Position numbers and translations under genes: made by a program. This document shows, piece after piece, positions 13,375 to 22,710 of a DNA stretch of 64,000 bases. The notes under the pieces were generated by a model that worked only from the letters and a program-made list of their open reading frames with translations, was not told the origin of the DNA and did not search any database. How positions within the stretch are numbered: the first letter of the stretch is position 1; each line of letters opens with the position of its first letter. The stretch lies in the NCBI RefSeq assembly GCF_054482525.1, contig NZ_CM137006.1. One strand, written 5' to 3'.

Positions 13375-15813
13375 ATGGCTATCAAAAAAACCGAACTCTA
13401 TTCTTCCCTGTGGGCAAGCTGCGACGAACTGCGTGGCGGGATGGACGCCAGCCAGTACAAAGACTATGTACTGACCCTGCTGTTTATGAAGTACGTTTCC
13501 GATAAGTATAAAGGCGATCCTTACGGGATGATCGTGATACCCAAAGGAGCCAGCTTTGACGATATGGTTGCGCTGAAAAATGACAAAGAGATCGGCGACA
13601 AAATCAACAAAATCATCCACAAGCTGGCGGAAGAGAACGGCCTGAAGGGCGTCATCGACGAAGCCGACTTTAACGACGAAGATAAGCTCGGCAAAGGCAA
13701 GGAAATGATTGACCGCCTGAGCAAGCTTGTCGGTATCTTTGAAGGGTTAAATCTCTCCAGCAACCGGGCCGAAGGCGACGATCTGCTGGGCGATGCCTAT
13801 GAATATCTGATGCGTCACTTCGCAACCGAATCCGGTAAGAGTAAAGGGCAGTTTTACACTCCAGCGGAGGTGTCACGTATTCTGGCGAAGGTGATTGGTA
13901 TTACTCCCGATACTCCGCAAGATGCAACGGTTTATGACCCAACCTGTGGCTCTGGTTCGCTGCTGTTGAAAGTGAATGATGAAGCCCGGCGCGGACTGTC
14001 GATTTTCGGCCAGGAGATGGATAACGCTACCAGTGCGCTGGCGCGGATGAACATGATTCTGCATAACAATGCCACCGCGAAAATCTGGCAGGGCAATACG
14101 CTGAGCGATCCGCAGTGGAAAGAGGCGAACGGCAAACTGAAAGCCTTCGATTTTGCCGTGGCGAACCCGCCTTTTTCCAATAAAAACTGGACCAACGGGC
14201 TGACGCCGAAAAAAGATCCGTTTGAACGCTTCGGCTGGGGTATTCCGCCGGAAAAAAACGGCGATTATGCTTTTTTGTTGCATATCATTAAAAGCCTGAA
14301 AAGTACCGGCAAAGGCGCGGTGATCCTGCCCCACGGCGTACTGTTTCGCGGTAACGCCGAAGCGAATATCCGTGAAAATCTAATCAAGCAGGGCTATATC
14401 AAAGGCGTTATTGGTTTGCCAGCCAACCTGTTTTACGGCACCGGCATCCCGGCGTGCATCATTGTGATTGATAAAGAGCACGCCCACAGCCGCAAAGGCA
14501 TTTTTATGATCGACGCCAGCCGGGGCTTTATCAAAGATGGCAACAAGAACCGCCTGCGTAGCCGAGATATTCACCGCATTGTGGACGTGTTCAACCATCA
14601 GCGAACGGTACCTGGCTACAGCCGGATGGTGCCCTCCAGCGAGATCGCCGGAAATGATTACAACCTGAATATTCCTCGCTATATCGAGAGCGGCGAGCCG
14701 GAAGATTTACACGATCTGACCGCGCACTTACAGGGCGGTATTCCGGCACGCGATGTGGATGCTTTGCAAGATTACTGGCGGGTATTCCCTGCCCTGCGCA
14801 ACGTGCTGTTTGCTGACGACCGTCCCGGTTACTGTCGGGCGCAGGTGAACGCGCAACAGGTGAAACCGACCATTCTGGCGCATCAGGAGTTTAAGGATTT
14901 TGCCACCCGCAGCCTGCTACCGTTTAAAGCGTGGGTGAAAGAGGCAAGTCTGGAAGAGATTCGCAAAGGTGATAAACCCAAAGCGCTAATCCACGATATC
15001 AGCGAAATGCTATTGGCGCAGTACGCCAACAGTGAGTTGCTGAACAAATACAGCGTGTACCAGATCCTGATGGATTACTGGACTGATGTCATGCAAGACG
15101 ATGTGTATGCGATTATGCAGGATGGCTGGCAAGCCGCCGCGCAAATCCGCGAGCTTCAGCCGGTGAAAGGCAAAGATGGCAAAAACATCTGGAAAGAAAC
15201 GCACGATTTCGAGTTTACCAAACGGCGCTACAAGGCCGATGTGCTGCCCCGTTCGCTGGTGGAAATTCGCTGTTTCCCGGAACTGCTGGATGCGCTGAAC
15301 CGCGCGCAGGAGCGCAGTGAAGAAGCCAGTCGTCAGCTAGTGGAATTCATCGAGGAGCAGGCAGGTGAAGAGGATCTGCTGGCCGAGGCGAAGAACGATA
15401 AAGATAAGGTGACGCAAAAGCTGGTGAATGCCCGTCTAGCACAGTTAAAGAAAACCACTGCCGGCCCAGATGAGCTGGCAGTGCTGAACCGCTGCCTGGC
15501 GCTAATTAAGGCCGAAGCCAGTGCGAAAAAAGCGCTGAAAGCCGCACAAGAAGCGCTGGATCGGGCGGTGTTTAAACATTATCCCACGCTGGATGAAGCA
15601 GCGATTAAAACGCTGGTAGTGCAGGATAAGTGGCTGGCAACGTTGCAGGCAGGGATCAAGGCGGAGATTGAGCGTATTACCCAGCAACTGGCGTCGCGCG
15701 TAAAGGAGCTGGAAGAGCGTTATGCTGAACCGTTGCTAGCGCTTGAAGCCTCCGTTGAGGCGTTGAGCGAGAAAGTGGCCGAGCATTTGCGGGCGATGGG
15801 GCTGGAGTGGTGA
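13375..15813 (+). CDS. hsdM: Type I restriction-modification methyltransferase subunit (long form, 812 aa)
   Basis: AdoMet motif DPTCGSGSLLL and catalytic VANPPFS (NPPF). There is an N-terminal HsdM-type helical domain and a long C-terminal coiled-coil-like extension. The stop overlaps the hsdS start. Confidence 0.9.
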   Translation: MAIKKTELYSSLWASCDELRGGMDASQYKDYVLTLLFMKYVSDKYKGDPYGMIVIPKGASFDDMVALKNDKEIGDKINKIIHKLAEENGLKGVIDEADFNDEDKLGKGKEMIDRLSKLVGIFEGLNLSSNRAEGDDLLGDAYEYLMRHFATESGKSKGQFYTPAEVSRILAKVIGITPDTPQDATVYDPTCGSGSLLLKVNDEARRGLSIFGQEMDNATSALARMNMILHNNATAKIWQGNTLSDPQWKEANGKLKAFDFAVANPPFSNKNWTNGLTPKKDPFERFGWGIPPEKNGDYAFLLHIIKSLKSTGKGAVILPHGVLFRGNAEANIRENLIKQGYIKGVIGLPANLFYGTGIPACIIVIDKEHAHSRKGIFMIDASRGFIKDGNKNRLRSRDIHRIVDVFNHQRTVPGYSRMVPSSEIAGNDYNLNIPRYIESGEPEDLHDLTAHLQGGIPARDVDALQDYWRVFPALRNVLFADDRPGYCRAQVNAQQVKPTILAHQEFKDFATRSLLPFKAWVKEASLEEIRKGDKPKALIHDISEMLLAQYANSELLNKYSVYQILMDYWTDVMQDDVYAIMQDGWQAAAQIRELQPVKGKDGKNIWKETHDFEFTKRRYKADVLPRSLVEIRCFPELLDALNRAQERSEEASRQLVEFIEEQAGEEDLLAEAKNDKDKVTQKLVNARLAQLKKTTAGPDELAVLNRCLALIKAEASAKKALKAAQEALDRAVFKHYPTLDEAAIKTLVVQDKWLATLQAGIKAEIERITQQLASRVKELEERYAEPLLALEASVEALSEKVAEHLRAMGLEW

Positions 15814-21994: not shown

Positions 21995-22710
21995 TGCCAA
22001 TCATGCAAATAGGCTCGTTACACTTGCTGGTCAACCGTAAGGCGATTAAGAATCTGCATATCAGCGTGCTGCCGCCTGATGGCAAAGTACGCGTTTCAGC
22101 GCCGGAACATATGACGGAGACGGCGATTCGTATGGCGGTTGCTTCACGCTTTCGCTGGATCAGAAAACAGCAGCAGGATTTCGCCAGACAGCCTCGTCAA
22201 TCAGAGAGGGAAATGGTCAGCGGAGAGTGCCACTATCTTTGGGGCCGAAGATATCGCCTACTTGTGATTGAGCGTCACGGGCGTCACGAAGTAAAAGTTG
22301 CAGGAAATAATAAGCTCCAGCTTTATGTTCAACCAGGAACCCGTGATGAAAATAAGGCATTGGCGTTAAGTGAATTTTATCGACATGAACTAAAACAGCA
22401 GGTGGCTAAGCTTCTACCTGAATGGCAGGACCGAATCGGTGTTCCCCTAACATTCTGGGGCATCAAAAAGATGAAAACCTTTTGGGGCACCTGTAACACT
22501 ACAACAAAACGAATCTGGCTCAATCTGGAGCTAATTAAGAAGCCGCCGGAGTGTCTGGAGTATATTCTGGTGCATGAACTGGTTCATCTTCTGGAACGTC
22601 ACCATAATGCTCGCTTCCGGTTGCATATGGATCGGTTTATTCCTGACTGGCGTGAGCGTCGGGATTTGTTAAATAATATGCCGTTAGCGTTTGAGGCATG
22701 GGAGTATTGA
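21994..22710 (+). CDS. Zinc metallopeptidase-like protein (YgjP/DUF45, HExxH) coupled to hsdR
   Basis: HELVHLLERHH motif near the C-terminus. Its ATG overlaps the hsdR stop (TGATG at 21992-21996). Confidence 0.8.
   Translation: MPIMQIGSLHLLVNRKAIKNLHISVLPPDGKVRVSAPEHMTETAIRMAVASRFRWIRKQQQDFARQPRQSEREMVSGECHYLWGRRYRLLVIERHGRHEVKVAGNNKLQLYVQPGTRDENKALALSEFYRHELKQQVAKLLPEWQDRIGVPLTFWGIKKMKTFWGTCNTTTKRIWLNLELIKKPPECLEYILVHELVHLLERHHNARFRLHMDRFIPDWRERRDLLNNMPLAFEAWEY

Follow-up and report, generated by a model that had tools for sequence, protein, structure and literature searches.

Why is a DNA ADP-ribosylating toxin-antitoxin pair, DarT-DarG, encoded between the hsdS and hsdR genes of a type I restriction-modification (R-M) operon, how are these modules controlled together, and what is the role of the zinc peptidase whose gene ends the operon? 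These questions are raised by a locus of NZ_CM137006.1 (assembly GCF_054482525.1), which we analysed within a stretch of 64,000 nucleotides (nt), hereafter called the window; all lengths and positions refer to it. The region belongs to an Escherichia coli chromosome, and strains AH62 and AH65 match it at 100% identity. The best explanation for the locus as a whole, to which we give a probability of roughly 0.8, is that it is an allele of the seven-gene RRDM (RptR-RMS-DarTG2-M48) defence island of enteropathogenic E. coli (EPEC) O127:H6 E2348/69 (Zhang et al., Nucleic Acids Res 2025, PMC12255303), in the order rptR-hsdM-hsdS-darT-darG-hsdR-YgjP-like peptidase. The locus is already known, as this near-identical E. 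coli anti-phage cluster was published in 2025 (PMC12255303).

A preliminary description of the window had reported six adjacent genes on the + strand, from hsdM to the peptidase gene. The list of open reading frames (ORFs) agrees with all six, and family profiles confirm that DarTG is embedded between hsdS and hsdR of a type I R-M operon with a trailing zinc peptidase; the DarT (DUF4433) and macrodomain assignments, in particular, pass a check with hidden Markov models (PF14487, NF048013 and NF048014 above their cut-offs, and Macro at 2.7e-21). The notion of a unit of six genes did not stand, as a seventh gene, rptR, and the promoter (13030-13072) had been overlooked. The feature starts at about 13030 rather than at 13375, since rptR and the promoter/operator are in the same unit. 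It comprises the following elements, all on the + strand.

12263..22809 (+): island module shared with EPEC E2348/69 (blastn), 96.5-99.2% identical outside the two hsdS target-recognition domains
13030..13035 (+): -35 box TTGAAC of the island promoter, a hexamer equal to that of the experimentally mapped EPEC promoter (PMC12255303; alignment)
13049..13072 (+): RptR operator predicted by alignment, with TAGCTA at 13049, TAGCTA at 13058 and TATCTA at 13067, in a 9-bp register and overlapping the -10 box
13096..13335 (+): rptR, 79-residue repressor of the island promoter, 96% identical to EPEC RptR; PF24718 (HTH_73) 1.7e-28
13375-15813 (+): hsdM, 812-residue methyltransferase subunit; N6_Mtase 7e-104; TIGR00497 282.8 bits (cut-off 242.75)
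14692-15810 (+): family-specific C-terminal extension of HsdM (residues about 440/450-812), conserved across the family
15807 (GTG) or 15813 (ATG, the RefSeq start) to 17147 (+): hsdS, two Methylase_S stretches
17160-17816 (+): darT (DarT2); PF14487 3e-53, 181 bits (cut-off 22.5); NF048013 262.6 bits (cut-off 150); PADLOC DarT 1.9e-74
17813-18880 (+): darG (DarG2), macrodomain antitoxin; Macro PF01661 2.7e-21 over residues 18-129; NF048014 451 bits (cut-off 250)
18899 (TTG) to 21994 (+): hsdR, restriction/translocase subunit; TIGR00348 545.6 bits (cut-off 284.55); HSDR_N, SWI2_SNF2, T1R_D3
21994-22710 (+): YgjP-like zinc peptidase (annotated 'M48'); PF01863 1.4e-61, 208.5 bits (cut-off 26); HELVH at residues 194-198
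22713-22721 and 22801-22809 (+): 9-bp inverted repeat, then a T-rich run, directly 3' of the peptidase stop; arms GAGCCTGTA ... TACAGGCTC

The window and the EPEC island share the seven ORFs, their order and their junctions, as well as the -35 box and the type of RptR operator. Six of the seven proteins are 96-100% identical between them, namely RptR (96%), HsdM (97.7%), DarT (98.6%), DarG (100%), HsdR (99.5%) and the M48 peptidase (100%), and the accessions of DarG (WP_000634203.1) and of the M48 protein (WP_001122107.1) are common to AH62 and the RRDM paper. HsdS differs, with both target-recognition domains replaced (about 15916-16360 and 16572-17005, as delimited by the breaks of blastn homology with EPEC). 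Because the two HsdS proteins are only 38% identical, the window allele is predicted to recognize a different DNA sequence from that of EPEC. The settings differ as well: the window locus lies in a large island that adjoins a tRNA-Ser gene and harbours CP4-type genes, whereas the EPEC island has insertion sequence (IS) elements on its flanks. At least 80% of the locus is found in 247 of 5,426 complete E. coli genomes (about 4.6%). The RefSeq annotation already includes darT, darG, the three hsd genes, an "M48 family metallopeptidase" and a small upstream "HTH-like" (helix-turn-helix) gene. As the preliminary description had pointed out, the association of DarTG with type I R-M loci had been reported before (PMC5179494, and for the EPEC island PMC12255303), and the literature likewise bears out its mention of an anti-phage role for DarTG.

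The main published answer to the control of the island is rptR with its regulated promoter. In EPEC, RptR binds TAGCTA-type repeats that cover the -10 box of the single mapped promoter and thereby represses it, and hsdM mRNA increases more than 15-fold on infection (PMC12255303). The residues E58, K61 and L74 of RptR, involved in DNA binding and dimerization, are all kept in the window. The first -10 box, AGCTAATTT, is 14 nt downstream of the -35 box, the same spacing as in EPEC, and at least two RptR palindromes lie over it, as expected of an RRDM island. The operators are not identical, that of EPEC being composed of three TAGCTA and one TATCCA and that of the window of two TAGCTA and one TATCTA. 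The palindromes allowed for RptR are TAGCTA, TAGATA, TATCTA and TATATA, and two sites are enough for repression (PMC12255303). The window operator should therefore still be repressed, since TATCTA is an allowed site and two sites suffice.

The genes that would be under this control encode a type I R-M enzyme made up of HsdM, of HsdS, which has two target-recognition domains, and of HsdR, which combines a nuclease domain with a superfamily 2 motor and has a DECH motif at residue 392. They also encode a DarTG2 system, with darT directly upstream of darG as a two-gene pair. The antitoxin is of the macrodomain type (DarG2) and not of the NADAR type (DarG1), a distinction made by others (PMC11825919). 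DarT harbours G49 and the catalytic residue E170, in the motif ...RYQAEALIW..., the role of the latter having been defined in EPEC DarT (Lawaree et al., Cell Rep 2020, PMC7003065). In DarG, the catalytic lysine is K80, corresponding to K54 in the numbering of that study. On single-stranded DNA, EPEC DarT modifies thymidine within TTT/TCT motifs by ADP-ribosylation, and it stalls replication; EPEC DarG counters it doubly, by hydrolytic removal of ADP-ribose and by sequestration of DarT (PMC7003065). The window DarT differs from this characterized toxin at three residues, while the catalytic residues of both proteins are kept; DarT of the window is thus predicted, from these features, to act as a toxin through ADP-ribosylation of thymidine in single-stranded DNA.

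Next to this pair, we observed two variations among related loci. In Enterobacter sp. MGH 24 (L043:7682-8257) and in Pseudidiomarina (L058:7684-8274), a second, divergent DarT-like gene, for a protein of 191-196 residues (PF14487 2e-19 and 1e-23), is placed exactly in the short hsdS-darT spacer, giving the order darT'-darT-darG. In an Oleispira metagenome-assembled genome (MAG; L063:4311-9663), the hsdS-hsdR interval encodes a TgvAB-like pair, a DarG-like macrodomain protein 65% identical to DarG of the window and a Fic-domain protein whose gene begins at the stop of the DarG-like gene; no DarT was detected in that interval. This arrangement may represent a macrodomain-Fic pairing.

To place the embedding of darTG in a wider context, one genome per species was scanned with an HsdR alignment, which yielded 66 loci. 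These were mapped with the window proteins, and the genes between hsdS and hsdR were extracted, clustered and annotated; in 49 of the 66 loci this interval holds a scored gene. TgvAB-like GmrSD pairs are found in about 14 loci and an SMC-like ATPase with a Schlafen/AlbA protein in about 10. DarTG is present in four to five loci, those of Aeromonas, Enterobacter, Pseudidiomarina and Agaribacter, plus the partial case in the Oleispira genome. Other cargo includes a full-length Gabija system (GajA 2e-243, GajB 1e-281), single GmrSD genes, Fic, zeta toxin, NsnB, PDC-M31A, PDC-M26A and a PLD-like protein with an SNF2 helicase, and in four further loci the slot is empty. The biggest cargo, in a Ketobacteraceae MAG (L018:2191-9978), spans 7.8 kb and four genes, including those for a PLD-like protein and a 1228-residue SNF2-type helicase.

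Exchange of cargo is also evident within species. E. coli A37 has the full frame rptR-hsdM-hsdS-hsdR-M48, in which two DUF262, TgvAB-like genes occupy the hsdS-hsdR interval, and its core proteins are 71-79% identical to those of the window. In E. coli 2013C-4991, where the annotation has a short hsdS remnant, cargo, hsdR and M48 only, two DUF262 genes similarly replace darTG. In two Vibrio cholerae strains (L072 and L073), the M48 proteins are identical and hsdR is 97% identical, but the cargo differs, being an SMC-like ATPase with a Schlafen/AlbA protein in one and GmrSD_N, an AAA_15/DUF3696 protein, an unknown protein and Schlafen/AlbA in the other. Homology between the two is lost right after the conserved 3' end of hsdS and is regained about 140 nt upstream of hsdR. 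The interval between hsdS and hsdR is a slot for exchangeable cargo, with more than ten kinds of defence genes, DarTG being one of them. The RptR paper (PMC12255303) and the study of TgvAB in V. cholerae (bioRxiv 10.1101/2024.04.04.588119) made a similar general point for their own cases. In the latter, Vibrio pathogenicity island 2 (VPI-2) carries a second defence system inside a type I R-M cluster, as does the window; the cargo of VPI-2 and of A37 is a GmrSD-type modification-dependent nuclease pair, whereas that of the window is a toxin-antitoxin pair.

The regulator is exchangeable too, since a gene for a Cro/C1-type HTH protein takes the position of rptR in loci without RptR. RptR is found in 15 of the 44 loci that could be evaluated, and the replacement is seen in five RptR-less loci (L014, L023, L041, L048 and L058). 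The replacing gene, immediately upstream of hsdM, codes for 74-84 residues (PF13443 3.6e-18).

The fact that DarTG is one cassette among many exchangeable ones speaks against a dedicated biochemical link of DarT or DarG with the Hsd proteins, and our data favour shared regulation and shared mobility as the explanation for the embedding. The EPEC island on pBR322 protects E. coli against Trib, Baz, TB34, lambda-vir and T7 by factors of 10^3 to more than 10^7, with protection assayed for the island as a whole (PMC12255303). We propose that the type I enzyme would form a first layer, cutting DNA that does not carry the methylation pattern of this allele's HsdS. DarTG2, as one of many interchangeable cassettes in the hsdS-hsdR slot, would form an autonomous second layer by blocking the replication of phages that get past restriction. 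The coupling between R-M and DarTG2 would then consist of shared regulation and mobility, with no dedicated biochemical interaction.

If regulation is shared, the cargo, hsdR and the peptidase gene should be expressed from the rptR promoter, and the spacing of the genes bears on this point. The stop codon of hsdM (TGA, 15811-15813) overlaps the hsdS start, hsdS and darT are 12 nt apart (17148-17159), darT and darG overlap by ATGA (17813-17816), the 18-nt gap between darG and hsdR (18881-18898) contains a ribosome-binding site, AAGGAG, ahead of the hsdR start codon TTG, and hsdR and the peptidase gene overlap in TGATG (21992-21996). All five junctions, read directly from the DNA, are as had been claimed, with distances after hsdS of 12, -4, 18 and -1 nt. 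A consensus scan revealed no terminator-like site in any junction, in line with the preliminary description, but the promoter and terminator scan is weak evidence either way because its counts over the operon equal the shuffled expectation (16 terminator-like sites versus 12.6 +/- 4.0 in shuffled sequence, and 14 promoter-like sites versus 12.1 +/- 3.4). Judging from gene arrangement, darTG, hsdR and the peptidase gene are probably transcribed for the most part by read-through from the rptR promoter. Among the related loci, the last cargo gene is at most 30 nt from hsdR in 27 of 49, and it overlaps hsdR in 11 of those 27.

Several observations weigh against a single transcript. The published transcripts from the EPEC island cover hsdM alone (PMC12255303), and in 19 of the 49 related loci the cargo-hsdR gap exceeds 100 nt, which implies internal promoters in at least some relatives. 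In addition, a DarTG2 system has been expressed elsewhere from its 'native promoter' (PMC11825919); should that system be hsd-embedded, its promoter would be inside hsdS. The corresponding alternative is that the genes do not form one transcript, darTG and/or hsdR-M48 using their own promoters inside the upstream coding sequences, as classical type I systems have separate promoters for hsdMS and hsdR. Candidate promoter-like sites on the + strand are found at 16795, 16881 and 16960 in the 3' half of hsdS, at 17717 in darT and at 21775 in hsdR. However, promoter-like sites are no more numerous than in shuffled sequence, and the three hits upstream of darT all lie in the second target-recognition domain, none of them in sequence conserved between alleles; they would thus be allele-specific, because this domain is hypervariable. 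With gaps of 12 and 18 nt only and two overlapping junctions after hsdS, we regard separate promoters as rather unlikely in this locus, and we retain read-through from the rptR promoter as the probable mode of expression.

It might also be asked whether darTG contributes to defence here at all, or mainly acts as an addiction module that stabilizes the R-M operon or the island. This alternative was proposed in the original DarTG paper (PMC5179494), and the presence of the locus on mobile, IS-flanked islands is consistent with it. We nevertheless deem it improbable. DarTG2 systems give direct phage defence (PMC11825919), and most other cargo of the slot are not toxin-antitoxin pairs but nucleases and ATPases such as TgvAB and Gabija, which argues that the slot selects for defence rather than for stabilization.

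A role of DarTG as a guardian of the restriction enzyme, analogous to that of PrrC, appears very unlikely. DarT would in that case be held latent on the Hsd complex and freed when a phage anti-restriction protein disables the complex, and the fact that HsdM and HsdR of the window resemble the EcoR124 type more than EcoKI would fit such a scheme. Phage T7 encodes the anti-restriction protein Ocr. A further point in favour of such a scheme is that the EPEC island still restricts T7 about 1000-fold (PMC12255303). The precedent is prrC, an abortive-infection effector gene located, like darTG in the window, in a slot inside a type I R-M locus (type IC, EcoprrI) and activated by the Stp inhibitor of EcoprrI from T4 (PMC1484252; PMC12707154). 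PrrC is silenced by the R-M proteins and triggered by the anti-restriction peptide, whereas DarT has its own antitoxin: DarG alone neutralizes it by its two mechanisms, EPEC DarTG being self-contained (PMC7003065), and DarTG2 provides phage defence when cloned alone (PMC11825919). Furthermore, the slot holds more than ten unrelated types of cargo and is sometimes empty, which makes a tailored Hsd-DarT interaction unlikely. Autonomous action of DarTG2 next to the type I enzyme is therefore our preferred reading.

The trailing peptidase gene behaves differently from the cargo and the regulator. Both regulator and peptidase could be assessed in 42 loci, and in every one of these, among them an Enterococcus locus at 44% identity, the peptidase gene is located 3' of hsdR. 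It is present with or without RptR or DarTG. An overlap of 1 or 4 nt between the hsdR stop and the start of the peptidase gene is seen in 38 of 45 loci, an arrangement that predicts translational coupling to hsdR. Its constancy across loci and its coupling to hsdR tie the peptidase to HsdR and the R-M family and not to DarTG or RptR, and its role is thus most likely related to HsdR, as far as gene context can tell.

The 'M48' name of this protein stems from automated annotation. Its AlphaFold model (pLDDT, the predicted local distance difference test, 82 overall and >90 over residues 120-230) is that of a soluble, two-domain protein. No solved structure matched the β-rich N-terminal half in the fold search. 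For the catalytic half, the best superpositions are those with the soluble minigluzincins selecase, jannalysin and abylysin (template-modelling scores 0.6-0.77), followed by those with Wss1 and SPRTN, which are DNA-protein-crosslink proteases; IrrE/ImmA-type proteases match the fold weakly (E > 0.1), and no chain of the strict M48 peptidases Ste24/HtpX is among the 50 fold matches listed. At the sequence level, the protein shows a weak SprT-like match in addition to PF01863 and marginal matches at best to solved structures. At least 7,773 homologues were collected at E <= 1e-10. In the literature, we found nothing that links YgjP, DUF45, COG1451 or M48 peptidases to type I R-M beyond the RRDM paper, which merely names the gene.

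Tentatively, the peptidase could be an obligate fourth component of the type I R-M family with HsdM of about 810 residues, acting on HsdR. As a protease built into the system, it may then alleviate restriction, or it may remove HsdR motors that have stalled on DNA. This proposal fits the overlap with hsdR that 38 of 45 loci show, the presence of the gene whatever the cargo or the regulator, and the Wss1/SPRTN-like catalytic domain. That the peptidase is instead the derepressor of the island, cleaving RptR on infection as CapP cleaves CapH in the cyclic oligonucleotide-based antiphage signalling system (CBASS), is most improbable. In its favour, derepression was argued probably to need proteolysis or sequestration of RptR, with CapH/CapP cited (PMC12255303), and the operon itself encodes a zinc peptidase. 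Against it, the peptidase gene is tied to hsdR by the stop/start overlap, and the fold of the catalytic domain is similar to those of minigluzincins and Wss1/SPRTN, with weak IrrE/ImmA similarity. Moreover, the peptidase is present in all 42 loci that have downstream DNA, while RptR occurs in a third of the loci (15 of 44) and is elsewhere replaced by a Cro/C1-type HTH protein or by nothing. We rejected RptR cleavage as the main reading on this distribution.

The preliminary description had called the 812-residue HsdM unusually long and had pointed to the trailing peptidase. The length of HsdM is correct, but both features characterize the R-M family as a whole rather than this locus. HsdM corresponds from end to end to a PADLOC model of 810 positions, and it aligned over residues 1-812 in nearly all related loci with a whole gene. 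The sequence of the C-terminal extension occurs solely in HsdM proteins; it has no Pfam domain, and sequence searches returned no solved homologue. Its model (pLDDT 87.5) consists of a helical domain and a terminal three-helix coiled-coil hairpin (residues 259-369 of the tail), so that the coiled-coil character attributed to the tail holds for its last ~115 residues only. A fold search of the tail against solved structures gave nothing significant, the best match (E = 0.14) being generic coiled-coil/BAR-like.

At the 3' end of the unit, homology with EPEC stops exactly at the second arm of the inverted repeat (22809). This element may mark the end of the operon or the boundary of the island. 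We found no clear terminator after the peptidase gene, the predicted fold of 22713-22809 being no stabler than shuffled sequence (z = -0.52).

Other genes of the window may be related to defence. Just upstream of the island, an ORF of 250 residues with an HNH-like N-terminus (11364-12116, - strand) corresponds to the PADLOC candidate PDC-M68A (6.6e-24) and matches CBASS-type endonuclease effector models too. Its neighbours at 9379-10062 (+), 10417-11202 (+) and 12560-12868 (-) have a low GC content, about 37-45%, and no match in Pfam or PADLOC. Together, these four ORFs may be further defence genes. Farther away, a 1310-bp IS3-family element (47683-48992) splits the gene for an AAA-domain protein of ~1650 residues (about 44366-50637, - strand) that is intact in AH62 and adjoins a pseudogene annotated as a TOTE conflict-system primase. 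The window and AH62 diverge after 59782.

The locus itself adds little to what is known, as a near-identical island has already been cloned and shown to be anti-phage, and the structure of its regulator has been solved. As a common allele with a different HsdS and a two-plus-one operator, it represents a natural variant for the model in which two sites suffice for repression by RptR. The invariant, hsdR-coupled peptidase is the component for which the searched literature holds neither experiment nor stated hypothesis, and it is the best target for follow-up. For the family as a whole, the hsdS-hsdR slot constitutes a rich and easily searched source of defence cassettes, including uncharacterized ones.

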